A stretch of 64,000 nt of DNA from Vairimorpha necatrix. Taxonomy: Eukaryota. Below the pieces are notes generated by a model, which was not told the origin of the DNA, did not search any database, and saw nothing but the letters and a program-made list of their open reading frames with translations. The stretch's first letter is position 1; each line of letters begins with the position of its first letter. The stretch is from the NCBI GenBank assembly GCA_036630325.1, contig CP142731.1, positions 558,001-622,000 of the forward strand, read 5' to 3'. Both the position numbers and the translations under genes were made by a program. Positions 1-61,500 of the stretch are shown in pieces.

Positions 1-62
1 ACAACATTGATGATCTTAATAATAAGATCAATAGAATTTCAAAGTGGGCAGTTAATAACAGA

Positions 63-2868: not shown

Positions 2869-5800
2869 AGTATCTTTGTTAAAGTCCTGTTATTATAGGA
2901 AATTATTTTCCTATAACAAGAGTGATATTTTCAAATCTCTAAATAAAAAAACTCATAATCCAATTGGATATAATAAAATAAAAAATACTTTCCAAACGAC
3001 AACGAGATTGAATAGTCTCAAGTATTTTTTCATTAGAAAGAATATGTGGTGGAAGAAAGTACAAGAACAATATTGTATTGTCAAGATACAAAGAATTCCT
3101 TATGGAGTGAAAGATCTCCTCAAAGACTTATGTAAGAAGAACTCTCTTTTGGAGAATTCCATTATTACAGCAAGAAAGTATAGACGAAGAGACACGTCTT
3201 TTACAAAAATAATAGTTGAAAAACTATACGCAAATTTATTGATTAAGACAGTTAAAGCTAAAGGCTTTAAAGTTTTAAATGATAATAGAAAAAAACTAGA
3301 GAAATCTAGTAAAGTAAATAAAAAGACCAAAGAGAACATAAAACTCTTAAGTCTAAACATTAATCATCTCTCTAATAAGAGAGAAGAACTTGAGTTTCTT
3401 CTTAAGAAGGAGAAACCAGAAATTATGTGTTTACAAGAAACTTGGAGACAATCTACAAGACCTTTGAAACTTGAAAAATACACTGCAGTTGAAACACCTA
3501 GTGGTGGAAAAAATAAACCAGGATTAATAACTCTGGTTAGAAATAATGGAGCGATCAGATGTTCCAAAAAAGGAACCGACTCAAACATTCTGCAAACTGT
3601 AGTTGAGTTTAGTTCCGCAGGCAAATGGATTAAGTATTTAGTCTTAAATGTCTACATACCACAAGACAAGGATCTCAAGAGGGAGACCTTGGCCAGATTA
3701 CTTTCTCTTTTAGAAAAAGAGAATTTCAGAAATAACTATAGTGAGATCATAGTGATGGGAGATATGAATATGCAGAGTTCTAGTCTCAAGAAAAAATTAA
3801 ATGTAGTTGGTTTGCCAGTTACAATAAAATATAACAGCAACGACGGTACAAGGATCCTCAAAGATGGTAAAAGATCTAAGAGGAGAATTGATACCATCTT
3901 TCGACTAAAAAGTAATGATAATGAGAAGATCATTATATCCAAGTCTTGGGTATTAAGTGATCACTTAGTGCTCAAAAGAAAAATTAAACTTGCCGTTGAT
4001 AAGATCTCAGATCAACTAGTTTATGATAAGAAAATGCTGGAAAATCCAAAAGTGATTAAAAAGCTTAAAAAGAAGTTGTGTAATCAACAATTAAACATGA
4101 ATAATCTTCCTGAGATTATTCAAAAAGTTTGTACATCTTTGAAGATTTACAAAAAGAGAAGAGTCCATACTGGACTTACAATGAGATGGAGATATTTAAA
4201 AGTCTTCACAGAAAGACGTCTAGCAGCAAGAGCTGTTATGAAAAATTATAATGAAATCAACTCAATTAGATTCGAATATCTCAAAAAGAGAGTAGACGAA
4301 ACTAAAAAGTTGATTCGCAAAGATAGATCGAAACTTTGGGCTTTGAGAGGAATAAAGCTCTTTAAAAGTAACAGATCCCGAGAATTCTGGCAATGGCTGA
4401 AAAATAGAAGTGTCTCCATTCGTTTGGATCAAGTGGCTCTAATTGACCACAATAAGATTCTTCAGACTTGCCGAGCAAAGAAGCTAGAAATAGCGAATAA
4501 ATTTTACGCTGATTTGGCGTCAGAGAATGATATAGATGTCAATGTCTATGATAAAGTAGATCTTGTTGATCTTCCCCCAGAGATAACAGATGAAGAATTT
4601 CTATCCGCACTGAAGAAATGTGGAAATAACAAAGCAGCCGGTCCTGATGAGATTCCAACCGAGCTATACAAACACTTACTGACTAGAGCAGTAGAAGATA
4701 AATTCTTTAAATTCATGCTACATGAATTTAATAAATATATTTGTGGAAATAGTCCTCCTGAATACTGGAGCATGGCAAACATGATTTGCCTCCACAAAAA
4801 AGGAGATGAGACAGATCTAAATAACTATAGGGGAATATCCTTAATTAACACAATTAGTAAGATCTATCTCAAGATAATAAATGACAGGTTAACTCAATTT
4901 GTCGAAGAACAAGATATACTCTCTAGATACCAAGCAGGATTCCGAGCAGGTGAAGAGTGTATGAATCAGATTACATCTCTATTAGAAATAGTGAAAAGAA
5001 GAGAATTCAGAGGCCTGAACACAATAATGTGTTTCATTGACTTTGAAAAAGCTTATGATAATGTAAGTCATGACTTATTATTTGAGAAGCTTACAAAACT
5101 TAATATCCCATTGTATTTAATCAATACAATAAAGGATATTTATAAATATACCACCATGCGTGTGAAAATTGGTGGTGACACGTCAAGTGGTTATAGCTAC
5201 AGAAAAGGAGTGAGACAAGGGTGCCCTTGTTCTCCAATGCTATTCAATATATTCATCAATGATATTTTTGACGGCATAGAAGGAGTTTTGATCCCAAGGT
5301 CAAATACGAGAGTTCCGGGACTGATGTTCGCAGATGATATTGTTGTCTTCGGAAACAACATTGATGATCTTAATAATAAGATCAATAGAATTTCTAATTG
5401 GGCAGTTAATAACAGAATGAAGATTAACTGCTCAAAAAGCGGAGTATTAGAATGGGCTGCTCATTCTAACATACAAGAATTCCGAAGTTTGTATTCTCTC
5501 AGTACAGACTTTGGTGTGATTGAGGAAGTCACTGAATACAGATATCTAGGTGTCTTAATTAAAAGAAACACGCTAGAAGAACACTTGGTCAAAGACGCAG
5601 CAATGCGTGGCAAGAAAGCCTTGGACGCCTTGATGCCCAAGTTGATGAAAAGCAGCATCAATCTCTACTTCAAGGCGATCTTAATAAAATGTGTACTAGT
5701 ACCCACACTAATGTATGGCAGTGAATTGTGGGGAATGTCAAGTACAAGAGCAGGTAAGATTAACAGGATCTTAAGAAAATCTATCAGAATGATATTCAAA

Positions 5801-5953
5801 AGAGTATTAGTTCCACTAGATAGAGTAATGGACGAGTTCAGTATCGAACGAATTCATATACAAGCAGCTTTAAGTAGATTTAGAGCATACAACAAGTGGA
5901 AACACAATAAGACAATCATATCGGATATAATTGCAATAAATCCGAAAGAAAGA
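2861..5953 (+). CDS. LINE ORF2 (APE endonuclease + reverse transcriptase), interrupted; continues 10148-10747
   Basis: APE motifs SLNIN, CLQET, GDMN, RID, SDH; RT motifs QAGFR, DFEKAYD, GVRQG, FADD, YLG. Confidence 0.95.
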
Positions 5954-8900
5954 TGTGGTATCTTTGTGCAGCACAGATCCACAAGAAGAATTGTTTGTTT
6001 GTTTACACAACAAACATATAAAACTATAAATATAATTTCAGCCCTTACCCATATATAAACAACAACAACGATGAACACCAGACGAACTAAACAGAAAACA
6101 ATCACAGGGAAGAACCCTATATCTAACAACATAAATAAAAAAATTGTAAATAAAAATATTTTAGAGACATACTTCGAATTAGGATATGTCAATTTGAGCT
6201 CAAAAGATGAGAACCTAAACGAAATAAAGATGAAACAAAAAACTGACCAAGAAACGAAATTAAAAGGATTAACCTTCTCAATGAAGATAGAAGGATTAGA
6301 ACATAATTTAACACAAGAAGTGAAAATTATAGAACAGATAGAAGTAATCGACATCATAAAATGGTGCGATGAATTTGAAAATTTGATAAATATGAACAAA
6401 TGGAACAAACAAATACAATTTGCAATACTAAAACAACTAATAAAAGATTCGAGATTAGTAGATTTTGAAAAGAATCAGTCTTGGAAAGAAATCAAGCGAT
6501 ATTTGATAGCTTTTAAGTTTCCGCCAGAGGAGCGTAGATATTATAGGAGAAAATTATTAAACATACATCAGACTCACTATGAAAAGATGCAAGACTATTA
6601 CGACGCAATCAAGGAGATTTTAGTAATTATAAAAACCATGGAACAGTTAACTGAAGCTGAAGTAGAAAAGTTATTCGACGAAGCCTTCCACGCAGGACTA
6701 GGAAAGTTTACATACGGTCGAGTAATAGAATATGGTCTAGGAACTTATCGGGACTCTTTTGAATTTTTGAAAAGTCTTGAGAACAAGATCAGAATCAGAG
6801 CTAAAGAGATGAAAGAAACACGCAACTCAGACAGTTACGAGAGCAAAAGCGTTTTCAAAAAAGACGACAATAATACGAATAAATTTACTGACAAATATTG
6901 CAAGTTTCACAAGCACTGTAATCACACAACAGAACAATGCACAAAATACGATAAGGATTTTTATAACAAACAGAAAGAAAAAAATCAGAAAAATAATTTC
7001 TATTACATCAAGGAAAAGGTGAATAACTTTGAGAAGACACAAATCAAGGGAAAGATAAACAATACAGTAATTGAAATAATGATAGACAATGGAGCTAATA
7101 GAAGTTTTTTGAGTGAAGAAGCAGCTAAGGAATTAAAACTTGACATGTATGAAACCGAAGAAGTAACACTCCAATTCGGAAACGGATCGACAGGACGCAC
7201 TCATAAGAAAGCCAGAGTAGCGATAAAATTAGAAGGAGTAAAGAAAAAAATTGAAGAAGACGTATACATATACAACGAACTACCTGTAAAAATGATTCTA
7301 GGCAACGATTTTTTGCTTAACAATGGCTGGCTACTGGATTACAAAAATAAGTGTGTAATGGTTCATAAAAATATGATACCTATGATAGGAGCTGATAAGA
7401 TCAATGAGGACGAAATGGATGCAATATTGTATGAACGAGTCTTATTGATCGAAGATGCTAAAATTGTGGAGAACTCGGAAATACCATACAAATTAAAAGA
7501 ATATGTGAAAAAGAATGATGATTATAAAAAAATCAACATAAAACCTATAAAACTATACATTGAGGATAAAATTAAAGACCATAAGTTAGACCTGAGATAT
7601 TATACGGTCCCATTAAAATACGAACAAGAAGCAAAGAAAGAAATATTACGACTTCTAAATAACGACATAATTGAAAGAAGCAGAAACTACTATGCGAGTC
7701 CTTCTTTCTTTATTGAAAAGAAAACAAAGGAACTAAGATTAGTAGTTGATTATAGAATAGTCAATAGATTCATCAAGGATGAGATATGCTTAATACCAAA
7801 AATTTTCGAAAACTTACTTAAACTCGGAGGAAACACGTTCTTTAGCAAGATTGATTTAAAGAACGGCTTTAACCAGCTGGAACTGGACGAATATAGTAGA
7901 GATATTACAAGTTTTACCATATTTGGAGAACAATACAGGTACAAAAGAATACCTTTCGGCATCAAATCTGGCCCTAAGTTGTTTCAGAAAACAATAAATC
8001 TAATACTAGATGGGATTGAAAAAATAATAATATATATAGATGATATTGTGATATATGGAGAGACACCTAGCGAACATAACCAGACCTTGTCTCAAGTATT
8101 AGATCGACTCTCTCTATATAACGTGAAAATAAACTTTGAAAAGAGTACGTTTGCAACAAGACGACTAGAAATATTAGGTAATATAATAGAAGGTAATCAA
8201 ATACGAATTGATACGAAAAATATAGATAAACTGATAAATGAGAATGCAACCCCAACATCTAAGAAAGAAATCCAAAAAATAATGGGAATAATAACATGGT
8301 ATCGTAATTTTATACCAGATGTTAGCAGAAGAATTGCTTGCATATCAATGCTGCTACAAGCAAATACTAAAGAAAAGTGGGGAGAACCTCAAACTAAAGC
8401 CTTAAAGGAGATTAAGCACGAAATAAAAACGTCAGCACAACTAAATTTACCAGATTTTAAAAGAGTATTTATTATACAATGTGACGCCTCAAATGAAGGC
8501 ATGGGAGCAGTTATTTTTCAGGCCCATGGAGTCATAGGGTATTACAGCAGGAAATTCAACAACACGGAGAAAAATTATACGATTGTCGAAAAGGAAATGT
8601 TTGCAATCATTAAAACATTAGAATTTTACAGAGTGCTTATTCTGGGATACAGAATAGAGATACAGACAGACAGTAGAAACTGCATTTTTGAAAATAAAAC
8701 GATATCTAAAAGAACGGAACGTTGGAAACTTTTATTGAACGAATACGACGTAACGGTACGCAACATTGAAGGTGCGACTAACCATATAGCAGATAAACTA
8801 TCAAGATGCTTTACGATTAAGCTTTCACACGACGAATTAGAGTATTACATAAAACGATATTTAAAAGAAAAAGATGGAAAATATCTATTAGACAAACACG

Positions 8901-10142
8901 GTAGATACATTGTGCATGAAGAAAAGGCCGATAAATTTATCGAAGAAATACACAAATTTACTGTACACCCAGGAGTGACAGTTATGTATCAGAATATTAA
9001 AAGAAAGTACAATATAAAAAACATAAAAAAGAGAATTTTGCAAGTTGTCAGCAAATGCATTGTTTGCATTAAATGCAAGAAAATCAAAACAAAGAAGAAG
9101 AAAAGCTTAAAAATAGAATCAGACCAATTAATGAAGAAGATAAGTACGGACATTTTTGGCCCGTTTGAAATAGTAGAGTACGAACACTCGTTACCTAATG
9201 AAAAAGCATTTTTTTTGACGATAACTGATATTTACAGTAGGTATACAAGAGTAATTTTAATGGAAAAAACAACTACTACAAAATTAATAAAGGAATTTAA
9301 AAAATGGATCGAAGATTTCGGTTGCCCACAAACAGTAATCTGCGACAATGGAAAGCAATACACCAGCAAAGAGTTTGATATATTTTTAGAAAAACAAAAC
9401 ATTAATAAGATTGCAACACCTATGTATCATCCTTCGTCAAATGGCATCAGTGAACGCCTAAATCAGACAATAGCAGAAGTGATGCGAATGTACAGAGGAG
9501 AAAATATAGCGAAAGTAACGAAAATGATTATGAGAAGATTGAATATCAACTTCCATAGAGGGATCCATGAACAACCCATAGCAATAGTAACCGGATATTC
9601 CCCGTTTGACTTAAACAAGCAGGTTGGAAAGCATGAACCGCACACTATAAAAAATATTGATAATAAAACAAGCAACTGGGAAATGACGAACAACGAAGAC
9701 ATTAATAGATTCAAAATTGGAGATAAGATCTTCTTGAAAAATTTTACAGGATCAAAAATTGATGATTGTTATTTAGGACCATACAAGGTCACAGTAGTTA
9801 GTAAGAAGGGAAGATGGCTAAAGATAAGTGGAAAAAATGAATGGATACACATTGACAATGTAAAAAGGATGACCAGCTATTGATTTTTGGTGGAAAGGGC
9901 AGATTGTGGTATCTTTGTGCAGCACAGATCCACAAGAAGAATTGTTTGTTTGTTTACACAACAAACATATAAAACTATAAATATAATTTCAGCCCTTACC
10001 CATATATAAACAACAACAACGATGAACACCAGACGAACTAAACAGAAAACAATCACAGGGAAGAACCCTATATCTAACAACATAAATAAAAAAATTGTAA
10101 ATAAAAATATTTTAGAGACATACTTCGAATTAGGATATGTCA
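5954..10142 (+). mobile_element. Ty3/Gypsy LTR retrotransposon, apparently intact, palindrome-PBS type
   Basis: 238-bp TG..CA LTRs 5954-6191 and 9905-10142, identical by eye; TSD AAAGA; PPT GGAAAGGGCAGAT; PR-RT-RH-IN order. Confidence 0.97.
6071..9883 (+). CDS. Gag-Pol polyprotein, single 1270-aa ORF starting inside the 5' LTR
   Basis: CKFH-x4-H-x4-C knuckle, IDNGA protease, YIDD RT, CDAS RNase H, HHCC + DDE integrase, GPY. Confidence 0.96.
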   Translation: MNTRRTKQKTITGKNPISNNINKKIVNKNILETYFELGYVNLSSKDENLNEIKMKQKTDQETKLKGLTFSMKIEGLEHNLTQEVKIIEQIEVIDIIKWCDEFENLINMNKWNKQIQFAILKQLIKDSRLVDFEKNQSWKEIKRYLIAFKFPPEERRYYRRKLLNIHQTHYEKMQDYYDAIKEILVIIKTMEQLTEAEVEKLFDEAFHAGLGKFTYGRVIEYGLGTYRDSFEFLKSLENKIRIRAKEMKETRNSDSYESKSVFKKDDNNTNKFTDKYCKFHKHCNHTTEQCTKYDKDFYNKQKEKNQKNNFYYIKEKVNNFEKTQIKGKINNTVIEIMIDNGANRSFLSEEAAKELKLDMYETEEVTLQFGNGSTGRTHKKARVAIKLEGVKKKIEEDVYIYNELPVKMILGNDFLLNNGWLLDYKNKCVMVHKNMIPMIGADKINEDEMDAILYERVLLIEDAKIVENSEIPYKLKEYVKKNDDYKKINIKPIKLYIEDKIKDHKLDLRYYTVPLKYEQEAKKEILRLLNNDIIERSRNYYASPSFFIEKKTKELRLVVDYRIVNRFIKDEICLIPKIFENLLKLGGNTFFSKIDLKNGFNQLELDEYSRDITSFTIFGEQYRYKRIPFGIKSGPKLFQKTINLILDGIEKIIIYIDDIVIYGETPSEHNQTLSQVLDRLSLYNVKINFEKSTFATRRLEILGNIIEGNQIRIDTKNIDKLINENATPTSKKEIQKIMGIITWYRNFIPDVSRRIACISMLLQANTKEKWGEPQTKALKEIKHEIKTSAQLNLPDFKRVFIIQCDASNEGMGAVIFQAHGVIGYYSRKFNNTEKNYTIVEKEMFAIIKTLEFYRVLILGYRIEIQTDSRNCIFENKTISKRTERWKLLLNEYDVTVRNIEGATNHIADKLSRCFTIKLSHDELEYYIKRYLKEKDGKYLLDKHGRYIVHEEKADKFIEEIHKFTVHPGVTVMYQNIKRKYNIKNIKKRILQVVSKCIVCIKCKKIKTKKKKSLKIESDQLMKKISTDIFGPFEIVEYEHSLPNEKAFFLTITDIYSRYTRVILMEKTTTTKLIKEFKKWIEDFGCPQTVICDNGKQYTSKEFDIFLEKQNINKIATPMYHPSSNGISERLNQTIAEVMRMYRGENIAKVTKMIMRRLNINFHRGIHEQPIAIVTGYSPFDLNKQVGKHEPHTIKNIDNKTSNWEMTNNEDINRFKIGDKIFLKNFTGSKIDDCYLGPYKVTVVSKKGRWLKISGKNEWIHIDNVKRMTSY

Positions 10143-10835
10143 AAAGAAAAACTACCTGGTGTTCAAGAACACAAAGATGGTTAAAACGATTTGTCGGCAA
10201 CGAATACGAATCAAGTGATAGTAAATTTATCACTTCAAAAATAATTGATGTACTAAGAAGTCGAAGAACTCTAAATACTTCTTTAGCTGCATCAATAGCA
10301 AACCAATATGACATAAGAAATTCACAAATAAAATATGTCATGAACAAAATAAACAATAGAAAAATTAGAACATATACTAGATTGAGATGTAATCTAGTAA
10401 AGTGGTCCTCAGCAATAGCACATTCAAAAAGAATTCCAATGAGTTATAGAAACAAATGCTTTTTGTGTGATGGACCACAAGAAAATTTAGAACACTTTCT
10501 GCTGGAGTGCGTCTGTTTAACTGACATTAGATCATCTTTTGAAAATAAACTGCCTCTACTGACTTGTTCAAAAACAAATATCCGAGAAAAAACCAAGCAA
10601 CTCCTTGGTAATAAAATCGGATTAAGAAACAACCCAGATAAGATTAAAGAACTCTGTTTTATTATAGATTACTTAGACAAGATGGTTGTCTCTAGAAGAA
10701 TTATGATTAATAACAAACTGAAGGAGATAACGAAACAAAATAATTAATATAGCTTAATTAAAAAAAATGAAAATCTAGAATTAGAAGAAAGAAGTGTTAT
10801 ATTATTAACAAAAAGACTTATATTTAATTATATTT

Positions 10836-18767: not shown

Positions 18768-21700
18768 TGTTGAGTGAAATAATAATTATTTATAGCCCCT
18801 ATTCTAGAATAAATGTTTATGGTGGAGAATATGAAAACAGAGATTAGTAGTGAAAATATCTTGCAGGAGCTACAAAGAGCTTCTTTACTTTCCAGTTTTA
18901 ATAAATTATCAAATGAGGAAAAAATTGATTATTTTATTCATAAAGCCAACATTGAGATACTAGATTGGCATAGTAAGTTAATGAAGGAGAAACGGAAATG
19001 TTCATTAACATTTGAAATGTGGAAAGAGTTGGCAGAAACGGAATTTGACTGCGGTACTGGATTGTACGAATTATATACTTTAAAACAAAAAGAAAACCAA
19101 AGTATTGTGGAATTTATCAAAGATGTAGAAAAGAAATGTCTAAAGGAAAATATCAGAAATACGGATAAAAGGAAGATAATAAGAAATGGAATCCTATCAA
19201 GATATAAGGCTATAAAAATGGTATTAACGGGGCAATATGAAATTAATAAAGAATTCCTTGAAATAATTGATGAAATGGAAAAGGAAAATAACGATATAAC
19301 AAAAATAAGACAACCTGCCTCCAATAACATCAACAAAAGATATTCATGTTATTTTTGCCACAAGGATGGGCATATCGCTAAAGACTGTTTTGCGAAGAAG
19401 AAAAGAACTGATGGTAAACAACTACAGTATAAAAGGATAAATGAGATCCACCAAGAAGGCGGAATGTTGGATGCAAACTTTATTAACAATAAAGAAGATT
19501 TAATATATGTTTATAATGAAAAAATTAATGTAACTTTTGACTCGGGTTCTTACTATAATTTTATGAGTAAAAAGGCTGCTTCTAAACTAACTTTAAAAAT
19601 TTATAGAAGTACAGAGGAAATATATTTTTTAACATGTTTAGAAGAAAGATTCGGGATTACAGAATATGTGATATTAGATTTCTCTTATGGTGGTAAAAGT
19701 TATCGTTCTAAATTTTTTATATTCCCTAAGGTGGAAAAATTTAAAATACTTGTAGGAAAAAAGACATTACAAGAAATATTGAAAAGGGTGTCTAGCAATA
19801 GAATTTGTGAAATAAATACGATAAAAGGAGAAAAAATTGTTGAAAAGGTCTATACACTACCAAAAAAGTTAGAAGAAGGAGTGGAAAAATCTATCAAAGA
19901 ACTACTAAGGAAAAATTACATAAGAAAATCAAAATCAACGTGGTTGAATATTTTAAGACCAGTAATTAAACCAGATGGTTCTATAAGAGTTACTACAAAT
20001 TTAGTTTCGTTAAACAAATTGGTAGAGCTAGATAATTACTCCTTACCACACATTGATAAGCTTTTATACGGGCTTCGTGGAAAAAAATATTTTAGTGAAT
20101 TGGATTTAAAAGATGCATTTTTTGTATAGAATTAGCGGAAAAAGATAGATATAAGACCGCTTTCAGATTTAAGCACCTATTATATGAATGGAACGTTATG
20201 CCAATGGGGTTTAAAAATGCTCCGGCAATTTTTCAAAGATTTATAGTTGATGTTTTACAAGAAGAAATAGGGAAAAGTTGCTTCGTGTATGTGGATGACA
20301 TACTGGTTTTTGGAGAAAACGAGGAAGAACATGATTTTAATTATGAGAAGATCATAACAAAGCTTAAAAGCTATAACTTAGGTATTAATGAGAATAAAAC
20401 AATATATAAGGTTAAAGAACTTACCTTTTTGGGACATTTAATAGCATATAATGAAATAAGCCAAAAATTACACGGGACCAAGCAATTAACGATATGAAAA
20501 GACCAATCAATAAAAAATCACTGCAAGAATTTCTGGGACTTATTAATTATTATAGAAAATTTATTCCTAATTGTTCAAAAATCGGAGGATGTTTATATGA
20601 TCTTACAAAAAATGATATTCAATTTAATTGGGGGAAGGAACAGGATTCTGCTTTTAATACATTAAAGAAAATTGTATTGTCGAGCAGTGTGCTTAAACAG
20701 CCAGATTTTAGTAAACCTTACATATTAGAAACGGATGCATGTGACTCTGGTCTGGGAGCGATCTTGTCACAAGAAAATGAAGGGCATGTGTACCCAATCG
20801 CGTACGCTTCTAGAAGATTGGTTCCAGCGGAAAGAAATTACAGTATCAGCGAGAAAGAATGCTTGGGTGTCCTATGGGGAATGGAAAATTTTAGATATTT
20901 TTTATATGGAAATGAGTTTAAAGTAATAACTGATCACAAAGCTCTAGAGGTCCTAAATAAAGGCGAAATAAAATCGTTACGTATACAAAGGTGGCTTGAT
21001 AAATTGAGTGAGTATAATTACACGATCGAGTACAAAAGGGGGACAGATATTCCTCACGTCGATTGTTTGTCAAGATCTTATCTTAATGAGTTAAATACGG
21101 ATGAAATAAATATGATTGAATTTAGCGAAGAAGAAAAAAGGTCTATCATAAGGAATAAACATATAGAATTAGTTCACAGAGGATCAAAAGTTATTGAAAA
21201 TGAATTAAGGAAAAAATATCATTGGAAAGATATGTCGCATATGGTAAAAACGGAAATTAATAAATGTCTAAGATGTAAGATGTACAATCCACAAAGAGGA
21301 AAAAAATTTATATTTGTGACAGCATACGAACCTGGCGAAAAGGTAGCTGCCGATATTATAGGACCAATCAATGGAAGCTATATAATTACAGCGATCGACT
21401 ATTTTACAAGGAAAGCATGGGCTAAAGTCATTACTACTAGAGAGAGTAATAAGCTAGTGAAATTTTTTGATGAAGTTTATAATGACATAAAGATTAAAAT
21501 ACTAATTCTTGATCAGTCAAAAGAAAATTTGAGTATTGAGGTAAAACAATGGGCAACGAGAAATAATGTTCAAATTCATTATATTTCCCCTTTTCATCAC
21601 CAATCAAACGGAAGAATAGAAAGATTTAATAGGACAATACAGGAAGGTATATATAAAGATAATAGTTTTGGAAATTTGAAGACAAAAACTAAGCGTGTAC

Positions 21701-37700: not shown

Positions 37701-40700
37701 TCTTCAATTCGTCTCTTTGATTCTTCTTTGCTCAAATCGAATATATAGCTGTAAATATCTAGTTAGCTAACACTTCAGAAAAATACTCTTTAATAGAAGC
37801 AAAGTCTTTCTGTTTAATTGATTCTAATAAGCTTAGATAAAATTTTCCATTCTCTTTAGGAAATTTAATATTTAGCAATTCCTTTTTAATTTTAATAAAT
37901 GAATTCTCTGTTAATCCATTCTTATAGTATTCATCCTTAATAATACTATACACTATTAATCCCATTTGGGAATCATTCCAACCATTACACTCTCCGAGGT
38001 GTTCAAATCTTTTGAACCACTGCAAACTAATATCTTTTTGTATATCATTTATGATTAATATTTTTTCTTTCATAGTTATATCTGTACCTTGTATTTTCTT
38101 TTCAAAGGTAATGTATTTATCAGTAGAAAATTCCTCCTGATGGTTTACTTTAATCGTTGCAGTTGATATCAACTTGGCGTGCTGCACAGGGATGCGGCTT
38201 GTTCTAAAGTAATACTCTAAAGAACTATATGTCTGCCCGTCTGTCTCTGGCAGGCTTTTATAATGTTTGTTGTAATTATTTTTATTTGATACCTTTTCCT
38301 TTGGGTTCATCTCCTTTTTTTATGGGTTTAAAATCAAATATTTTAAAAATAAGAAGGAGGGAAAATAATGAAAAATTGTAATTTCATCCTATAGGAAATA
38401 GAGATGTTATGTGGTCATAATACCACACTTCCATAACTCATAAAATTTCACGTCTAATAATACGGAGACCTTTTACAACAAAAGAATGATTATATAAGTA
38501 TTTAAGCCAAGAAAAAAAAATAATGATGATTAAGATAATTTTTATTTTAAAATAAGCTAAACGAAGTTTTCGTGTAGATTAGTATTATTATGTTTGTTCG
38601 AATAAATATCAATTAGAAATAAACTCTATTAATAATGATTTTCATAAAAAATAAATAATGCATATTTCACGCTTGTAAACGACATGAGTTCTTTACAAAG
38701 ACCCATTATTATAAGATTCAGATTCAAACTTTTAAGTCATTACTTTAATAGTAATATATTAGAAAAAAAAAAAGAAGTGTTAAAGAAAAGTGTTTTTTTG
38801 TGTATTGAGAAAATATGTGACGTTATTACTGGGGACTTTGCCCAGTTTTTCATACAATTCTAAATAATTTTTTATTAGAGGCTCTTCTAGCCTGTATTGG
38901 TCTTTGTTAAGTTTTGACCTGTCATAGCTTTGCTTATGACTTCTCTTCTCGTAGCTCATGCCCTTCTTTTCAAAAATAAATATTTATAAAAAATAAAATT
39001 CTAGAAAATTCATTTTTTCTAGAAAAAGTTTTTATCAGAAAAAATGATTTTCTTGACATGTGGCTAATACCACAGTCTGCCTCTCCTAGAACTTTAGATT
39101 TTTGATGTGGCTCCAACCTATATTCCCCTTTAACCTGTCCCAATATCCTTTCTTACTAACCGCTTCGATTCTTCGTAATTTTGTAAATTTATATCCAAGC
39201 TTATTAGGATTAAATAAGCGTTCTCGGCAGAAATCTCCCACTTTAGCTAACTGTAAAGTGGTTGCACTATAAGGATATTTATATGATATTGGTCTTCGCA
39301 TAGGATCGTATTCATCATATTCGTTTATAATGGAGAATGGTGATTTGCCTATATTCCCAATATAATTTCGGTTTATCGCATTTTCTGCGTTTGCAAGAGC
39401 GAGTCTAATTTCTTTACCTTTATTTATACTCAACACAAATGTAATTGTCTTTTTGATAGCTTCTGATATACCATTAGAACTAAGGGTATATGTAGGTATT
39501 AAGGTATGAATAATCTGTTGTTCAGCTAAGAATTCTCTAGTTTGCTTGCTTATGTATTGGCGCCCATTGTCCGATATTAAAGTTTTGGCTTGCCGTACGT
39601 TTCTATCCAATTTTCTAGAGCTTGAATTACTGACTCTGATTTTACTGTGTATAAAAAATATAATCGTGTAAACCTCGAATATATATCCGTAATTGTTAGA
39701 ATATATCCTACCTCTTTTCTACCAGAAGTTATGAAATTATCTAAATTAAACGGTCCATATATATCCGTACTAATCTTCTCAAATTTTTCCGTCGCTATCA
39801 TTTTACTTTTTCTATATCTTAAATAGTTATTACCTTTGAACACACCACATGTGTTACATTTCTTTGTTATATTTATTATTCTTTTAAACAGCCCACTTAT
39901 ATAATAATAATTCTTTAGGTTGTAATATAGCGTGCTACTTCCTCTATGTTCACTATACTTGTGCATAAATTCTAAAAACCTCTCTACCTTTTCTTTTTTA
40001 TAATGATCCTGTTGTTTTGATCTGTTAAAAATGATCCATTTTTTTTATAGAGACAACATTCTTTTATAATGTTTGTTATGTTGACTGCGTTTTCTCCATT
40101 TTGATGTAAAAGGGGCGCTTGATTTCTAGATAGTTGATCTGCCAAACAGTTCTCCTTTCCATTTACATGTTTGATTGTATGACAGAATTCGTTTAACAGC
40201 AACTTCCACCTGCTAATCCTTGAACTTGAGGCTTTATTTTCATAGATACAATTTTTACTGTCCGTTAATACTTCCACATGAGAACCTTGTATGATATTTA
40301 TAAATTCAAGTAACGATAGTATGATTGCTAAGAACTCCTTCTCTACGATTGTGTAATTTAATTCTGAACCTGAAAATTTCTTACTAAAGTATCTGATTAC
40401 CTTTCATTCTTGTGTAAGTACACTTCCCATTCCTATATCGCTAGCATCGCTTTCTAGCATAAACCTTTTTGAGTAGTCTGAAAAACTTAGATGATGTTTT
40501 TCTTTAATCCATATTTTAATCTTATCTATTTCATTCTGCATATTTGAATTAATTTTTATCGCTTTATTTTTATTTGACAACATGTTTGTAATGCTGCTAA
40601 TTTTTCTAGACATGTCTGGTATAAATCTTCTGTACCAATTTAATACTCCAAGTAATTTCTGCAAATCTCGCTTTGTTTTTATTTCTTTATTAAAAATCGA

Positions 40701-40916: not shown

Positions 40917-43900
40917 TGTGGACGGCGGATAGTCCGGACCAATCAGATTGTCTTCTTGACATCTGAAACATGATAATTCTGAAACAACGTTTCAGAATTA
41001 AATATAAATACATCCTCGAATTTATGAGGATGGGCAATAATAAAAAGAATACTCTAAAACCTCATATTTCGGCTAACGTCAACACTGGCGACAACGCAAA
41101 CCAATCTGTTGAGAAGGACAGATTAAGTACTTTACTAGAAGCAGTGGGCTTCAGGAAGGATGGCATAAGACCATTCAGTGGTAAAGGAGGCATGGAAGTT
41201 GAGCTATGGCTGGAACAATTCTCGTATTTAGAAGGGGAATGGAAAGGCGAAAAACTTCTATCCTATATGAAACCCTATGTCGTGGGAAGAGCGAAAAAAT
41301 GGATGATAGCGATGGAAGACATCGAATATACTGACTTCATCAGTTTTAAACAAGCTCTTATTACTAAATTTGGTGTAAATAAACAAACGACAAGAAATGA
41401 AATCAAAGAGTTATACAGAATATTAATATCTGGTCCTAACGAAAGTGGCCTGGAAGATTTCATAATGGAGGTTATAACCCAGAATAGGAAAGCTAAATTA
41501 GAGTTTAATACAGTCAAAATGGAACTGATCGAGTTTTTCCCAACTGTTCTTCACGACAAAGTAAAAGAGTCGATGGACTGGAAGAGCATCATCAAAATCT
41601 TAAATGATAACGAAGATTTTATTAAAAGATTAGGTAAATATAATAAAATTACACCAGAAATAAAGTCTAAAAACTCATCTTTAATAACAAAACAGAGAAA
41701 AGATACTAAAGCAGAAATTTCATGTTTTAACTGCGGAGGGCAACATTATGCGAGTAGATGTCCGAGCAAAAACCAAAATCTGAAGAAAGAAAAAGCGGCT
41801 TATTCAAGTTCTAGAAGGGCTCAAATTATTTCTAAAGACACTAAAAAACTCAACGAAGTCAATGAAAATAAAACTGATTTAGTTTATTTAACAGTCAAAA
41901 TTTATAATAAAACTGTTAATGCCTTACTAGATACAGGAGCATCGCATTCGTTTATAGATAAAAGTCTCATACAAGAATGTAAGTTAGAAAACATGAGAAG
42001 AGAACGCATAACAACTGCCACTGGTATAGTTTCTAGTTATGGTAGCATTAATGGAGTCCTGGAGATTGAAGGAAAGAGGTACAAAATCCCCCTCCAGGTG
42101 ATGTGTCCATTAAGCGAAGATGTAATATTAGGAAGAGATTTCTTGGAAATAAACAAAGGAGCGATTGATTTCCATAACAAAAGAATTACTCTTGGGAAAA
42201 ATATATTAAAAACCGGAAATATAAAAAAAAATATGGATTGTCTGGAGTTAAGACATATATCTAAAGAGACATCACGACAGCCAAGTGTTCACAGCACATG
42301 TAACACAACGTTGGAATTAGTCAAAGACTACTTTGAAAGGCTGAAAGGACGTGAAGAAGGTCTCAGCAATACGTTGGGAATAGCCCATAAAATTGATTTA
42401 CGCCCCAACGTGACAATAGCTAATATGAGAAGTTATACTATGGACGGTAAAAAGAAGGAGTTCATAATTAACGAATGCCTAGAGTTGGCTAAAAATGGAA
42501 TCATAACAGAAAGCGTGAGTAGGTGGAATGCACCTATAGTAGTGGTTAAAAAACGCACGGGAGGACACAGGATGTGTATAGATTATCGAGAATTAAATAA
42601 TCGAACGGTAAAAGAAGTTTGCCAGCCTCCAACTATTGAGGAGTGCCTTAATTCATTGAGTGGAGCAAGATATTTCACACAATTAGATCTAGAAAAGGGG
42701 TATCATCAAGTGCCCATGGATCCAGAGTCACAAGAGTTGACAGCCTTTATGTCACCAGTAGGTAAGTTTCAATATAGAATGATGCCTTTCGGCTTAACTA
42801 ATGCCCCGGCAACATTCCAGAGACTAATGTATGGAGTTTTCAGAAATTTAACAAATTCCAAAGTCGTAGTTTATATGGACGACATTACCATATATAGTAA
42901 AACGCATGAAGAACACCACAGAGATGTAAGAGAGGTCCTTCGAGTCTTGTTAGCAAACGGACTTAAAATAAGTACTGAGAAAAGCGTTTTCTGCACAAAG
43001 AGGGTGGATTTATTAGGTCATTCAGTAATGGATGGAAAGGTATTCCCAGATGAAAAGAGACTAGGTCCTTTTAAAGATAAGCTAAAGATAGAAACTATTA
43101 AACAGTTACACTCATTTGTTGGCGGAATAGGCTACTTCAGAAACTATTTTAAGAATTTTTCTAGTAAAACATTTATATTAAACGAAATAATCAATAGGAA
43201 AAGAGAATTTTCAAAAATTGAAGTCGAGAAAACTGTAAATGACTTACGACTAGAATTAATAAATTCGGCGTTTTTAGAACTCCCAAATATGGAAGAGATG
43301 TTCATAATAGAAGCAGATGCATCAGATTATTGTATAGGCGGTGTTCTCAAACAGAAAAAGAATCAGAAGGATGTGGTCATCAGATTCTGTAGCAGAAATC
43401 TAATGCCTGCTGAGAGGAACTATCCTACACTTGAAAAGGAAACTCTTGCAATAATTTATGCGGTGAAGACTTTTAAAAACTATTTACATAAAAAATTTGT
43501 CATAAGAACAGATCACAAATCTCTTGTATGGCTTTATAAAGTCAAGAATCCACAAGGAAGGATTGCTAGATGGTTGATGTTCCTGGCAGACATGGAATTT
43601 GTGATTGAATATAAGAAAGGGAAAGATAATGTAGTAGCAGACTGCCTTTCAAGAGTCCAATTAAAATCAATAACCAAGGAAGATGGCGATGGGGCGTCTA
43701 CGAAATTAATCTTAGAAGCTCATTCCTTAACTGGACATAGTTGTGCCAATAACACGTACAATTTTTTGAAGATACATCATGCGGGATCAGGAATATCTCG
43801 AGATAGAGTGAAAGATATATTGAGAACATGTGGAACATGTTTAAATTTAAAAGGAATAGACCGTTCAAACAATATCCAACAAATGTAGAAGGAACATTCA

Positions 43901-46204: not shown

Positions 46205-49200
46205 TGTCGTAGCCCATCAAGTCCAGCCAATCATCTTTCGACAAATGGACGTATTTGATTGGCTACTTAAACTATTTAAATTTATTTCCAAAAGAGGGGA
46301 TGGAAAATTCGAATAAAGCATTTGACATGGCGACAACCTCGAATAATGCAAACTATTTCTCCGGGGAGCCAGGTGAAGATGTAAACACCTGAATACGAGA
46401 TATAATGATGTTGGGAGAAGTCTCTGAGTGGACAGAACAACAAATGAAAAAGCGCTTATTTTTAAAATGAAAGGGAATGCTTTATCCTGGGCATCTCAAG
46501 TCCTAGCAGGAAAGATGAACTATATAAGCCTAGCAGACTTTATAAAAATGTTGAAAGCCAGATTTGGAACGAATAAAGATAGTGACATAACATTGAGCCG
46601 ATTTCTCTCTCTTCCCATACCAGAAACAAGGGAAGACTTTTCTAAAATGTTAACACAAGCCACGATCATCTCTGAAAGAAAACAAATTTACTTGAATGCA
46701 TTATTTCAAATGATTATTAACAAATCCCCACCCGAAATAAAATTATTATTATTCCAAGCTTCTAAATCGGCCGAGACTTGGGGAGTCTTTGTCCAAATGG
46801 CGGAAGAAATAGCATGGATTCCATATCCAGATAAGATGTTGTCTATAGTAGAAGAATACGGACGTAAACCATCATTTAATTACAATTATGGCAGAGGGCC
46901 AATTAACTACAAAAAACATGGTAGAGAGACACCATATAACAGAAAACATGACAAGGAATCATTTTCAGAGAGAGACAGTCAGGAAATTCTCACTTAAACA
47001 AGAAACATTGCATCGTGCATGGAGAAGGATTGCACGCAACAAGAGAATGCAAAAAATTATCTAAATTTATTAAAGAAGAAAAGAGGAAGTCATCTGGTAA
47101 CATCAACATAGTCGAAGAAGAAGAAAGGAAACATGGCCACGAAATAAACGACGATGTTTTTTGTATATTATGTAGAGTTATAAATAGCGATAATCCTTTT
47201 GTCGTAGAAGGTTATGTCTTTAATAACAAGGTTAGTGTTTTATTGGATACTGGAGCAGATGTGTCACTCATCGGACAATCAGATTTACCAATTGATCTGC
47301 ATAAACATATTAATACATACTCAGGATTTGTTAAAGGAGCAGGTAATAATACATTAAAATTTATCGGACAGTTAAAGAACGTTACTATAAAATTAAAAAA
47401 CAAAACTATAACATTTTTATCACTAATTATGCAAGATACAAGATACATAATTCTAGGATCTGAAGTAATAAAAAGAAATTAAGCTTAGTCACTGAGATAT
47501 TTACAGAAATATCACCAGATATCAACAAAAAAGTTAGATACTGCAACGATCTAAATAAAACAAAAATCGAGGAACAATATTGTGATGTTAGTTTAAGCAT
47601 CACAATTATAAGGGCTATAAAATATAGACCCATCAAATATTTCATTCATGACATGTCGAATCGTGAATAAATTAACAAACAAAAGAATATTGTAAAAACA
47701 TGCTTACAAATGGAAAAGCACTAATCTTTATCCAAATTGTTGAACATAATTTTAAATTAAAAATAAAATATAAAAGGAAGTTTGTTTTGGAAGGGGACGA
47801 ATGATTGAAGAGAAAGATACAATTCAAGGCAGAGAAAAAGCCATTAATAAAAACAGTTATAAAAATAAACAAATATTCACTAAAAACATTTTAGAAAGCT
47901 ATTACAGAAATAGCACAGTTCCTTTTATACAGGACAAATTTGAATTCAAAGATAAAACTGTATTCAATAATGAAACTAAAAAAAAATCCAAGGAAGGATT
48001 AAAATTTAAATATACGATCGAGGAGATCGATTTAGAAGTTGAAAAAAATTTAAGTATTATAGCAGACATTGAGGAGTATGATGCTGCCGAATTAGAGCAC
48101 TGGTTTGAAGATTTCAACCAGATAAGCAGACATAAAAAATGGGACTTTAAAAAACAAAGAATAGCCTTAGGAGAGCTAGTTAGAGACCCAAAATTACAAC
48201 AAATATTTTCCCTATCAGAAATGGAAAAAATTAAAATATTTATAGAAAAAAAGATGATTATAAGGGTGAGTTCTGAAATGCTGCAACTGAAACTAATGGA
48301 ATGCAAGCAGACAAAGTATAGATACATTAAAGAATACTTAATAGAGTTAAAAGAGTTGATTGACCAGTACACTAGAATTGAAGGTCTTACTAGAAAAGAA
48401 TATGAAAGAAAATTAAGAGAGAGAGTTTCTCCTTGGGTTTAGGATTTGCAACTAGATTAAAAATTATGGAATTAAAAATGGAAAAAATTGAGGACATCGT
48501 TTTATATCTGGAATCAGTGGAGCAAAGTTTAATACTGGAGGTAAAAGACGTGAAATAAAATATAAATGCGTCAACGGAGATCGAACGAAATGCAGAAATG
48601 AAAACACCAACTACATGAATAGCAAATGGTGTAGCTTTCATAAGAACAATACTTACAGTTTAAAGGATTGCTTCGTATTAAAGAATAATACTTCTGAACA
48701 TTCAAAGGAAAGATCTAAACATAACAGAAATGATAAAAATAATCAAGACAGAGTATTTATGATGAAGGAAGTTGAACCGAGCAGACTAGATTTAGAAATA
48801 GAAGGTGAAATATTAGAATGTAAAAAGAACGTTCTGCTCGACACAGGAGCCTGCCGCAATTTCATAAACGCAGAACTGGCAGAAAAACAGAATCTATTAA
48901 TTAGAGAAGAGAAACCAATTCAAATGGTTACGGCCACTAATCAGAGCGTCGAATTGAAATCAGTAGTAGACGTAGCTTTGAAATTAAAAGGAATAAAAAG
49001 GGAATTTAATGTCATGCTGTACGTACTAGATAAGTGTATGGTCGACGTTATTTTAGGTAATACATTCATTTTTTCAAACGAAATGATTCTAAATTTCAAA
49101 GAAAATACAATTAAGATTGACAATGAGAAAATCAATGTGTTAGAAGAAAATGAGAAACTCAAAGAAGAGAATGAGTTAGATAGCATATTTTATGATAAGC

Positions 49201-56185: not shown

Positions 56186-57091
56186 AAATTTATTTAGGGG
56201 TCATAAAAAAGATAGTTGAATAATCATAAACAGTTAACATACAGAAATACATAGCTTGTATAATTACAAATTTCAAATGTTAAAAATTCTGTTAGGTTTA
56301 AAAAATTAGGAAAAAATCTGGTCGCGCACTGGGCGCGGTCGCTCGTTGGGCGCGCGACAAATAATTCTTCGTTTTTATTTGGGTCTCCTTCTTAGTGAGA
56401 CTATTGTAATAGCTATATGCTAAAAGTCTTTCTCTTATAATCTCTTCATACTGTTTAATTGTATTATAATTGGCTTGATTAATAGCATCTAAATCCCTGA
56501 TGCTTTGTCTCTTTCGCTCGGGCGGATAAATTGTTATCTAATACCCTTTTTCTAAGAACTAAATACGAGTTACAGGTATAGCTTCTTTTCTTTCATCGTA
56601 AATACATGATAAGTATATTATGGCCATTTGTTCATCTGTTCATTTGTTTGATATTCCTAATTCTTCAAACTTATCAAGTTGTTTAATTGTGAGCTGAGTT
56701 TTGATATCGTATATTTTTAATATTTTTTCTTTACACTTTATAGTGTTATCTATTATGTTCTTTTCGAATTCAATATACCCATCTTCTTTAATGTTTCCTG
56801 GGTTACTGTTAACGTTTAACCTCGTTGAATTCAACTTGACGTTATCATTGGGGACTTTACCCAGTTTAAACTACATTTCTAAATAATTGTTTATTAAAGG
56901 CTCTTTTGGCCTGTATTGGTCTTTGTTTGTTTGCACCTGTCATTTCTTTGCTGATGACTTTTCTTTCTGTAGCACATGCCCTTCTTTTGAAAAATAAATA
57001 TTTATAAAAAATAAAATTCTAAAAAATTCATTTTTTTAGAAAAAGTTTTTATCAAAAAAAATGATTTTCTTGACATGTGAATAATACCACA

Positions 57092-58505: not shown

Positions 58506-61500
58506 TGTCAAACATATCCAAGTTAAGGGGTATTTAATAATAAAAATATAAAGTAAACAATGACATGAAAATGTCACAACATCCCCCCCTCTATAAGAAA
58601 TAATCGTCTTCGTCGATTTTTCTAAGCTGCGTAGCGTGTCTTTTACTTATTTCCCATTACTATTGATTTCATATGTATCGTTAGTCAAAATACCTATAAC
58701 TTCTCTGTTTCTACAAACTTTGGTTGTCCTTTGTATTTGTGTATATGGTCTTGTATAATGACTAAATCCCTAGGTTCTAACTTTTTATATTCAGGTTTCT
58801 TGAATAAACTCTCGTATCTATTTATTCGGTTTTCAAAATGTTTTCTTTTTACTTCTGAGAGGTTTTCTAGATCTAATGCTTCTATTGGGGACATCCCCGT
58901 TGCTCTAGACTTATACAATTATAAGCCCCAATCATCTTATCGACTCTTTTAGACAGTCTGATGTTCTTATCCTGCTTATTAATTCCTTCGCCCACAGTTC
59001 TATTAAATCTCTCTATTTTACCGTTTGAACAATGATGGTAGAACGAGATAATCCGTTGTCTTATTTTCTTCTCCAATAACAAACTTTGTATCTTTTCACT
59101 TATATTTTCTTTTGCGCCGTCTGATATCAGTGTGTGTATATTCATCTTTTTGTGTACAATTTCCAGAAACATCAATATGTTATCACTTTTTTTGTTTTGA
59201 ATACTTTTGCAAATGCGAATCTTGAGAAATAGTCTATAGCTGTTGTTGTATTATTTAAAAATTTATATATTCGCCCCTTAATTTTATCATGAATAAAGAA
59301 CTTAAAAATAAAATGGTGGAGAATAACAAATTTGTGCCCATGACAAGGGAAATAACGGTGGGAAATGCCGCTCTAGAGCTAAAAAGACTGGAAAATTTGT
59401 CTTTTTTTTGAAAGCATGAGCGAAGAGGAAAAGATAGAATTCATTATTAGCAGAGCATGCCATGAAATCATTGAATGGTTTTGCAGTGTAACGTCAAGGA
59501 AAACTGCAATGAACTGGATTCGTTTTAAAGAAGAGTTGGAGAGTTTTTGCAGCCCAAGTAAGTTGGAGATAGGCGACGTGTTTCGTTTAAAGCAGGAACA
59601 TAATCAAACAATTTGTGATTACATAAAATTGGTGGAGGAATCAGCAAAGTCCCACAAATTAAAAAATGAAGAAAAGATAAAAATAATTTTTGCTGGACTG
59701 AAAGAGGATGTTCCAGATGTGAAAAGACTTATGATTAGGAGTAAAGTTTTAGATGAGAATTTAATTAATGATATTTATTTGTTAGAAGAGATTAACCAGG
59801 CTGAAAAAATAAAAAAGGAAGAGAAGAAAAAGGAAAAAAAAGGAACAAGAAAAAAGAGAAACTTAAATCTAAAAAAGAAAGAATCAATAAATTGGAAGGT
59901 ATATTGTCGCAGCTACAAAGTTTAAAGGTTCAGGAACCAAAACAGTTCTCTTGTTACAACTGTGGAAGGTCAGGCCATACTTCTAAATTCTGTAGGGCCC
60001 CGCGAGACAATAACGGATCATACAAAAGAATCAATGAAGTAGTAGGAGACGCCGAGAACAAAGTACAGGACTTAATTAATAAAAATAATTCAGTTTATAT
60101 CAATGGAATATTATTTGAGGCTACACTGGACACCAGGTCCCATTATAATTTCATATCAGATGCTGTTAGGAAAGTATCGAAAGTTAAAACAAAGAGTAAC
60201 CATCAAAAAATGACCTTTTATACTTGTTTAGATGAGCCTTTTTGTATTAAAGAACATGTTTTTCTGGAAATTGAATACAAAGGAAAAAGATTAAGACAGA
60301 AATTCTATATTTTACCAAAAGTCAGAGCAGAGAAGATTCTTGTTGGAAGGGAAACAATCAAAATGTTAATGGAAGGTGAGAAAACAGTGAATCAGGCAGA
60401 AATTAAAACAGCCGAAGGTGCTAAAGTCGTTGAGAGAGTTTTTGATTTGCCCATGAAAATTGAATCAGGAATTGATGAGGCGGTAACTGAGTTGCTACAG
60501 AAAGGCTACATTTCAGAATCTAAGTCCACGTGGTTAAACAATATAAGACCTGTAATTAAACCGAATGGAAGCATCAGAGTCACAACCAACCTCGTAGCAG
60601 TAAATAAATTAGTAGAACAAGGCCGATACTCCTTACCTAATATAAATACTATCTTAGTTAATTTAATAGATATGAAATATTTCAGTAAGATTGATTTAAA
60701 GGATGGTTTCTTTCAATCCCGTTGGCCAAAGAAGACCGACATAAAACAGCTTTTAGGGTCCGACATAGATTGTACGAGTGGAATGTGATGCCTATGGGCT
60801 TTAGAAATGCCCCAGCGATTTTTCAAAGGCATATGGATAGAGTTTTGACTGAAGAAATAGGTAAATCATGTTTTGTTTACATAGATGACATATTAATTTT
60901 TAGTAAAAGCGAAGAAGAGCATGAGGCTGTATTTAGAAATATTGTTGACATTTTGAACAGGAATAATTTGGAGATAAATACTGAAAAAACAATTTATAAA
61001 CAAGAAAAAGTAGAATTTTTGGGCCATATAATCACTCATAATAAGGTATATCCAAAGAACTCAGTTACACAAGGGATTGATGATATGAAGATGCCCCAAG
61101 ATCGAAAACAATTACAAGAATTTTTGGGGTTCATTAATTATTATAGGAAATTTGTTAAAGGATGTGCAATTCTTGGAGCACCTTTGTATGATTTATTACA
61201 GGAAAAGAAAAAATATATATGGGATGAGGCAGCAATGAATGCATTTGAAGCATTAAAGGAGGAACTTAAGAAGAAAATTGAATTAAACCAGACGGATTTT
61301 AATAAGCCTTTCCAATTAGAAACAGACGCTTCAAATCATGGTATAAGAGCGATTTTATCTCAAACGAATGAAAAGGAAAGATACCCAATAGAATTTGCTT
61401 CTAGAAGATTAAAAGAACACGAGAAAAAGTACAGTATTTCAGAAAAAGAATTTCTAGCAATCCTATGGGGACTTGAACATTTTAAATATTTTGTGTATGG

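Follow-up and report, generated by a model that had tools for sequence, protein, structure and literature searches.

A self-complementary element at the primer-binding position of a microsporidian Ty3/Gypsy clade and its possible role in the priming of reverse transcription

A 64-kb stretch of contig CP142731.1 of the microsporidium Vairimorpha necatrix (positions 558,001 to 622,000; the whole stretch is called the window here, and coordinates are counted from its first letter) has a G+C content of 31.8% and carries retroelements that are nested in one another. Four of these, named E1 to E4, are long terminal repeat (LTR) retrotransposons without the TGG of a tRNA-type primer-binding site (PBS) in their post-LTR sequence (4/4), unlike the Gypsy elements E5, E7, Ea and E8 of the same window. 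Instead, a perfect palindrome of 12-14 nt with the core TTGA-NN-TCAA is located 1-2 nt past the CA in which the 5' LTR of all four elements terminates (4/4). Among the four, the centre of the palindrome varies (GC, TA or AT), and so does the outer pair (T:A or G:C). An earlier note, made from the letters of the window, had reported these four palindromes at 0-2 nt past the CA, with palindromy kept while centre and outer pair vary, and had set beside them four other Gypsy elements with an ordinary TGG PBS. Both observations were confirmed, with the ends of the LTRs set by LTR-pair alignment, self-comparison and target-site duplications (TSDs).

Four Gypsy elements with a palindrome behind the 5' LTR

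E1 (5954..10142, plus strand, 4189 bp) is an intact Gypsy element the LTRs of which (5' LTR 5954..6191, 238 nt, TG...CA; 3' LTR 9905..10142; both on the plus strand) are 100% identical and which is flanked by the TSD AAAGA (5949-5953 and 10143-10147). A single open reading frame (ORF) for gag, protease (PR), reverse transcriptase (RT), RNase H and integrase (IN) extends over 6071..9883 (plus strand, 1270 aa) and starts within the 5' LTR. Pfam matches of this ORF comprise aspartyl protease, RVT_1, RT_RNaseH, rve and Integrase_H2C2, along with a weak match to Retrotrans_gag; the domains are arranged in the order protease (325-415), RVT_1 (548-704), RNase H (770-892) and integrase (949-1121), and the closest relatives of the polyprotein are proteins of V. 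necatrix (67%) and Nosema granulosis (54%). As indicated by the LTR pairs, the 5-bp TSDs and the PR-RT-RNaseH-IN order, E1-type elements are Ty3/Gypsy LTR retrotransposons. Given the identical LTRs, the TSD and the intact ORF of E1, an element of the palindrome design has moved recently. The insertion site of E1 is one copy of a non-LTR element that resembles a long interspersed nuclear element (LINE; endonuclease and RT, ORF 2861-6058), several copies of which are spread across 1-5953 and 10143-16442. E1-like sequence is also present in contigs of two sequencing runs, in which the ends of E1 are confirmed by a joint 5948->10143 that shares five letters; this joint most likely stems from other copies of the host LINE and not from a polymorphic empty site. 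In the run contigs aligned to E1, no variant appeared in 6193-6204, at a cover (0.53 and 18.6 in the bin 6171-6327) that is too thin to be informative on variation.

The palindrome of E1, TTTGAGCTCAAA (6193..6204, plus strand), follows a 1-nt spacer (A, 6192) in the junction ...GTCA, A, TTTGAGCTCAAA, AG and is translated as N-L-S-S-K. E2 (29419-38401, minus strand) has LTRs of 94% identity (38175..38401 vs 29419-29649), and its 5' LTR (38175..38401, minus strand), the 5' start of which is provisional, ends in ...GCCA at 38175. Here, the palindrome AGTTGATATCAACT (38161..38174, minus strand) comprises 14 nt with the 12-nt core following a 1-nt spacer, the junction reads ...GCCA, AGTTGATATCAACT, G, and the peptide is K-L-I-S-T. 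An ORF of 473 aa with a MULE transposase domain (33206-34627) is inserted within E2, which explains the E2 length of about 9 kb. E3 (47581-51939, plus strand), located inside E7, has LTRs of 92% identity, the TSD AATAT and a 5' LTR of 356 nt (47581..47936, plus strand); its palindrome TTTGAATTCAAA (47939..47950, plus strand) follows a 2-nt spacer (AA) in the junction ...GACA, AA, TTTGAATTCAAA, G and is read in another frame, as K-F-E-F-K. E4 (38818-57092, minus strand) is split by the nested elements E5 and E7, and pieces of its pol region were found. Its LTRs are 89% identical (5' LTR 57092-56837, 3' LTR 39075-38818, minus strand), and the palindrome GTTGAATTCAAC (56824..56835, minus strand) is positioned behind a 1-nt spacer (A) in the junction ...GTCA, A, GTTGAATTCAAC, G, with the peptide K-L-N-S-T.

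In a tree of RT-RNase H sequences (30 sequences), E1-E4 form an exclusive clade with eight proteins of N. granulosis and V. necatrix (support 0.988), and the elements with a TGG PBS fall elsewhere. In E1-E4 and in most relatives, the last ~40 nt of the LTR (U5) code for a conserved Gag N-terminal motif, I/L-L-E-x-Y-F...V/I-P (6150-6191, 38175-38230, 47900-47936 and 56837-56880 in the four elements); U5 is under protein constraint and presumably under replication constraint as well. Small hairpins are predicted immediately upstream of the palindrome.

Self-complementarity in the gag frames of the clade

Matches to the pattern TTGANNTCAA occur four times in the 64 kb, exactly at the four sites, at a chance expectation of 4.1, and the window contains about 46 distinct perfect palindromes of at least 12 nt. 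Thus, the signal lies in the position at the LTR edge and not in the count. The site is translated in two frames, one giving NLSSK, KLIST and KLNST and the other KFEFK, in agreement with the earlier description; the third frame is impossible, as TGA would be a stop. Furthermore, the codons required for pairing are the rarer ones, with TTG and TCA making up 14% and 20% of their sets. When the peptides were kept fixed and synonymous codons were resampled from the clade's own usage in a 30-nt window, a palindrome of at least 12 nt arose with a probability of 0.0084 for E1, 0.0083 for E2, 0.22 for E3 and 0.0073 for E4, the product of which is 1.1e-7. This codon-preserving comparison, which the earlier note had named as a check, supports its suggestion that the constraint acts at the level of the nucleic acid, and the covariation described below does so as well.

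Since the ORF crosses the palindrome site, the predicted proteins of relatives carry the site. When 1.84 billion representatives were searched with a gag profile built from the three open gag N-termini (E1-E3), 244 proteins matched at E<=1e-3. The site analysis drew on 150 listed of these 244 matches together with E1-E4 and E1-related proteins; 158 sequences matched the profile locally, and the N-terminus with the site was covered in 65. An organism name was obtained for 10 of the 20 relatives looked up, and all of these (10/10) belong to the Microsporidia, the named hosts being N. granulosis, V. necatrix, V. apis, Dictyocoela muelleri and Pseudoloma neurophilia. The family fits the microsporidia-specific groups of single-ORF Gypsy elements described by Parisot et al. 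2014 (PMC4202319; this and the further papers cited were available in excerpts, to which all statements on their content refer), and the palindrome clade is a microsporidia-wide clade of single-ORF Ty3/Gypsy elements. Scans of viral, metagenome and genome contigs yielded 99 loci, all of at most 34% identity to E1, with neither clade members nor relatives at the DNA level among them, and a six-frame search of these loci with the gag profile gave one weak match (E 0.002). LTR calling on 80 of the metagenome loci as a background was dropped, as the 15 repeat pairs obtained were mostly assembly-end repeats. One V. necatrix protein, P0031, is annotated as an ERO1 oxidoreductin but carries an S-L-N-S-S site and matches the gag profile at residues 112-301; the gene prediction has probably been merged or confused with a retroelement.

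Among the 65 sequences that cover the site, 60 are able to encode a 12-nt palindrome with the consensus core or with one compensated pair, and thus palindromy is kept across the relatives as far as can be read from their peptides, a point that had been put forward as a test of the earlier proposal. At control offsets in the same proteins, such a palindrome is possible at 202 of 79,529 positions (0.25%). For a window of 25 residues, the control rate is 17%, and it is 2.9% if the full core is required. The most frequent site type is L-[N/S/I]-S with the core TTGA..TCAA (39 of 65), followed by M-[N/S/I]-S with ATGA..TCAT (8 of 65) and L-x-L with TTAA..TTAA (6 of 65); the frame-0 type (FEFK, IDIN) with TTGA..TCAA accounts for 3 of 65, L-H-A with TTGC..GCAA for 2 of 65, and V-S-S with GTGA..TCAC and S-N-S with TCGA..TCGA for 1 of 65 each. 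Palindrome-compatible peptides cluster at profile columns 42-43 and 48; at column 48 they amount to 33/64, compared to ~4/65 at most other columns, and lesser rises are seen at columns 29 (13/58) and 88 (15/65). A window test for any feasible 12-nt palindrome turned out to be too permissive (2.15% of centres), and core-specific and covariation tests were used instead. Per five-residue peptide a single 12-nt palindrome is possible, and in E1, E2 and E4 it matches the actual DNA.

Covariation was scored for base pairs 5 and 6 at the 48 sites that read [L/M/V]-[N/S/I]-S, in which base 1 of the L/M/V codon has to pair with base 1 of the codon after S, and base 3 of the preceding codon with base 2 of the codon after S. 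Both pairs are satisfied at 48/48 sites; when the following residue was shuffled among the sites (20,000 trials), the average was 22.5 and the highest value 34. At the L sites (T..), the residue that follows is always one for which an A-start codon exists; the M sites (A..) are followed only by L, F or W, which have T-start codons (8/8), and the V site by R (C-start). Similarly, N (25), S (15) and I (8) account for the middle residue at all 48 sites, encoded by AAT, AGC and ATA, and these codons consist of A plus a self-complementary dinucleotide; in background [LMV]xS tripeptides, x is N, S, I or T in 326/884. Together, covariation and the constraint on the centre indicate that self-complementarity is selected at the nucleic-acid level, with the centre included. 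In a gag tree calculated with the site columns masked, 23 sister pairs are present, seven of which are not of the five-residue type and were set aside. The peptides differ in 12/16 of the pairs evaluated, and at least one different base pair is required in 11/16; as far as can be judged from tree and peptides, these 11 differences are phylogenetically independent compensated changes. We regard it as close to certain that selection maintains a nucleic-acid element at the PBS position which is complementary to itself, and the palindrome observation, which is confirmed, now stands on far stronger ground than the earlier note could establish.

Pairing partners, priming and alternative explanations

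In Tf1, the first 11 nt of the element's own transcript pair with the PBS in one molecule, and RNase H cuts the resulting 11-bp duplex. Elements of the palindrome design would resemble Tf1 in their independence of tRNA and in a short PBS of ~11-12 nt that pairs with the element's own RNA, and the RNase H cut of an RNA duplex proposed below for E1-E4 would be the same chemistry. However, Tf1 pairs within the molecule, whereas the LTRs of E1-E4 are devoid of a complement to the site. An exact complement of at least 7 nt to the 25 nt behind the LTR was searched in the element's own LTR for E1-E3 and was found in neither E1 nor E2, and only as a 7-mer in E3. Ungapped matching of the 12-mer, which covered all four elements, gave at best 8, 8, 10 and 7 of 12 for E1-E4, and the 10-of-12 match in E3 was judged to be an AT-rich stretch upstream of the transcription start. 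Based on these searches, self-priming of the type known from S. pombe Tf1 and the Tcn1 and TAR lineages (Tf1/sushi-type; PMC6317226, PMC5006619) was excluded, in line with the earlier suggestion of a distinct tRNA-independent route. The site of E1-E4 complements only itself, and the partner must accordingly be a second molecule.

A palindrome at the PBS position is not wholly unprecedented, and the earlier statement that no description was known calls for correction: it has been published, without a mechanism, for the GalEa elements, a group of Ty1/Copia retrotransposons of the Pezizomycotina (Donnart et al. 2017, PMC5445492). Under the terms 'Conserved Hairpin Site' and 'unusual PBS', the GalEa account describes a conserved 9-bp box that the last LTR base extends to a palindrome of 10 nt, together with a complementary box downstream; its authors propose a PBS role for the box and state that no known model fits (PMC5445492). 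GalEa and E1-E4 have in common that both a tRNA-type PBS and a Tf1-like complement are missing, that a short conserved palindrome (ACTGATCAGT or ACTAATTAGT in GalEa) is located at the 5' LTR end, and that palindrome variants occur, which in GalEa are altered at position 3, position 6 or both, the two positions being partners in a single base pair. In contrast, GalEa are Copia elements of ascomycetes with IN before RT, and E1-E4 have the Gypsy order and reside in microsporidia; the GalEa palindrome comprises 10 nt including the last LTR base and is positioned in a non-coding leader, while that of E1-E4 has 12-14 nt, a spacer of 1-2 nt and a position within gag. GalEa further possess the second complementary box 12-41 bp downstream, leading to a hairpin, which was not found for E1-E4: the best matches to a box of this kind (CHSeq2) within 80 nt downstream were 7, 7, 9 and 9 of 12, which is within the range of shuffles (means 7.0-7.6, maxima 9-11 of 12). 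Likewise, no second palindrome-compatible peak stands out over the 25 profile columns that follow the site, the rise at column 88 being situated ~40 residues downstream of the site. Neither a dimer-priming model nor a family-wide covariation test forms part of the GalEa account (PMC5445492) in its available portions.

A further Gypsy element in which a conserved motif replaces the TGG PBS after the LTR is Skipper of Dictyostelium (PMC5006619). As in E1-E4, a Tf1-like complement is missing, but the motif of Skipper is a polypyrimidine tract and not a palindrome. Literature on palindromic or self-complementary PBSs contained nothing on microsporidian elements, with the early papers on Nosema bombycis LTR elements (Xu 2006, Xiang 2010) outside the coverage, and the terms PBS, primer and palindrom are not present in the text of Parisot 2014 (PMC4202319) as available. 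The PBS of a tRNA-primed element begins with TGG, 0-5 nt behind the LTR, and complements the 3' end of a tRNA; E1-E4 do not fall into this type, as TGG is missing after the LTR.

According to the standard replication scheme of LTR elements, the LTR end corresponds to the base at which copying from the primer starts, and two genomic RNAs are normally co-packaged. As the LTR ends 1-2 nt before the palindrome, the primer 3' end must pair with the 5' edge of the palindrome; this spacing is usual for a PBS, and the length of the palindrome is comparable to the 11-nt PBS of Tf1. Only one RNA is known to complement the palindrome of a given family, namely another copy of the element's own RNA, and due to its perfect self-complementarity the palindrome pairs only with the same site on such a copy. 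Folding energies are predicted to be -10.6 to -15.3 kcal/mol for the homoduplex, with the lowest value for E1 (-15.3 kcal/mol), and 0 to -1.1 kcal/mol for the hairpin.

In the scheme that we propose, a 12-bp duplex would be formed at the palindrome between two genomic RNAs, one strand of which would be cut by the element's RT/RNase H at the 3' edge of the duplex. The new 3'-OH would then be extended across the spacer of 1-2 nt and further across U5 and R of the partner RNA, resulting in minus-strand strong-stop DNA without a host tRNA, and the overall scheme would amount to a between-molecule version of Tf1 self-priming. The sequences show where the palindrome lies, that it is conserved and that its base pairs change in a compensatory manner; from this pattern we infer the RNA-RNA pairing between two genomes, the cut of one of them and the identity of the cutting enzyme. 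The priming interpretation is plausible and well motivated, and in our estimation the proposal that the palindrome represents the PBS, with one of two paired genomic RNAs being cut to prime on the other, has about an even chance of being correct.

Several points weigh against this proposal. The palindromes of the relatives were deduced from peptides and not from DNA outside the window, and a profile built from E1-E3 may slightly favour matches that keep the motif, an effect which cannot produce covariation. The gag tree is based on ~190 columns, and some of its supports are low (0.54-0.59 for two pairs). In 1/65 sequences only a 10-nt palindrome is possible, and in 4/65 there is no such site. 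With regard to the mechanism, cutting one genome sacrifices a template, and a palindromic PBS allows two plus-strand strong-stop DNAs to pair together, both of which are costs that the scheme leaves out of account.

Covariation proves self-pairing and not priming, which suits the view that the palindrome is solely a signal for dimerisation or packaging, while another primer starts at the same place. In retroviruses, two genomic RNAs are paired by self-complementary leader sequences located in or close to the PBS, as for the dimerisation initiation site (DIS) of HIV-1, and small palindromes within the PBS promote dimerisation in HIV-2, where the PBS is of the tRNA type (PMC5874298), and in mouse mammary tumour virus (MMTV; PMC8096270). 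These palindromes are, however, only ~6 nt in length and form part either of the loop of a hairpin or of an ordinary tRNA-binding site of 18 nt, and the primer is still a tRNA, whereas TGG is missing in E1-E4. In addition, the 1-2 nt between LTR end and palindrome leave no room for another PBS, and the LTR boundary sets the start of synthesis at the palindrome edge. A role restricted to dimerisation or packaging is therefore considered unlikely. Classification as a kissing-loop site of the retroviral DIS type was rejected, given a palindrome of 12-14 nt, no separate PBS and only the central 4 nt in a weak loop.

Alternatively, the site might act within one RNA, as a small hairpin or as part of a larger local structure that is recognized by RT or that is self-priming after a cut. 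A hairpin is emphasised in the published GalEa case (PMC5445492), and folding predicts a hairpin of 4 bp with a 4-nt loop at the site in E2, E3 and E4. In such a hairpin, the four central bases would form a free loop, yet they are self-complementary in 48/48 sites, and this constraint on the centre disfavours the hairpin; its predicted energy is marginal compared to that of the duplex, and a CHSeq2-like partner was not found within 80 nt downstream. We thus regard an action within one RNA as improbable.

Very unlikely, in our view, is a host RNA as primer, be it a tRNA, a tRNA half or fragment, or another small RNA that complements the site wholly or partly. LTR elements are by default primed in this way, and Copia lineages with half-tRNA primers have been described (PMC6317226), but TGG is missing in E1-E4, and one host RNA cannot fit four families of one genome that differ in the centre or outer pair of the palindrome; a fixed host primer is unlikely for this reason. 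The tRNA-type elements of the window, all on the plus strand, behave differently. E5 (40917-44938) and E7 (46205-53783) have ordinary TGG PBSs, TGGCGACAACGC at 41086..41097 and TGGCGACAACCT at 46328..46339, with the sequences TGGCGACAACG from 41086 and TGGCGACAACC from 46328, while Ea (18768-22099, 52-nt LTRs) and E8 (59244-62734, 70-nt LTRs) both carry TGGTGGAGAATA, at 18820..18831 and 59314..59325, respectively. The PBS starts are thus identical within pairs of diverged elements (E5 and E7, Ea and E8), as is expected of fixed host primers. To our knowledge, a perfect 12-nt palindrome is not to be expected inside a tRNA.

Conservation of a peptide motif in Gag, or of a site recognised by a dimeric DNA-binding protein, can hardly be upheld: L-x-S does recur in most members in one frame, but the peptides are chemically unrelated (NLSSK, KFEFK, IDIN, MNSF, LHA, LSL), two reading frames are in use and rare codons are chosen for pairing, which excludes a protein motif, and the half-sites change (TTGA, ATGA, TTAA, TTGC, GTGA, TCGA) with the other half always matching, which makes a dimeric DNA-binding protein unlikely.

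As judged from the sequences, the data favour a duplex of two RNA copies, and a hairpin, a protein motif and a fixed host primer are each less favoured. The family-wide covariation is best read as self-pairing between like strands, in keeping with the annealing of two genomic RNAs suggested in the earlier note.

The surrounding nest and the wider meaning of the palindrome

The region 38818-57092 represents a three-deep nest in which E4 (minus strand) is broken by E5 and E7, and E3 (47581-51939) resides within E7; a further integrase fragment (55285-55803, minus strand) is located in the nested E4 region. The LTRs of Ea and E8 are extremely short, measuring 52 and 70 nt at pair identities of 100% and 98.6%, respectively, and the entire promoter, R and U5 would need to fit into this length. 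The ATG of the Ea ORF is located at 18813, 7 nt upstream of the LTR end, and the TGG PBS TGGTGGAGAATA consequently falls within the ORF of Ea. Between inverted copies at 22583-22625 and 24355-24395, an ORF of 429 aa with an integrase core (rve) domain extends over 22833-24122. The inverted copies contain the G+C-rich sequence GGCGCACGTGCGCCCAGCCCGCAC and its reverse complement, conspicuous in a window of 32% G+C, and the ORF with its flanks may represent either a DNA transposon whose transposase is of the rve type or a retroelement piece that was rearranged. A tRNA gene scan and an Rfam scan of the 64-kb window gave 0 matches.

For the start of reverse transcription in LTR elements without a tRNA site, no known model fits according to the available accounts of GalEa and Skipper. 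The clade described here provides the cleanest sequence evidence so far for the self-pairing of a motif that replaces the PBS, consisting of many independent compensatory changes which are legible in the proteins. Since each peptide predicts its own palindrome, the claim of self-pairing can be checked in public assemblies. As a more tentative generalization, to which we give somewhat less than an even chance, a palindromic PBS might constitute a third general route for the initiation of reverse transcription in LTR retroelements, next to priming by tRNA and the Tf1 type within a single molecule. Co-packaged genomes would pair through it, and the leader of the one that is cut would serve as primer on the other; this route would have arisen on two or more occasions, in Gypsy elements of microsporidia and in the GalEa Copia elements of fungi.

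For annotation, it is of relevance that tools seeking a tRNA-type PBS will mis-score elements of the palindrome clade, which make up a large part of expanded microsporidian genomes. In these elements, an RNA pairing element of 12 nt and a protein-coding frame evolve together, and if the proposed mechanism is true, a third priming route would be written into the gag reading frame in microsporidia.

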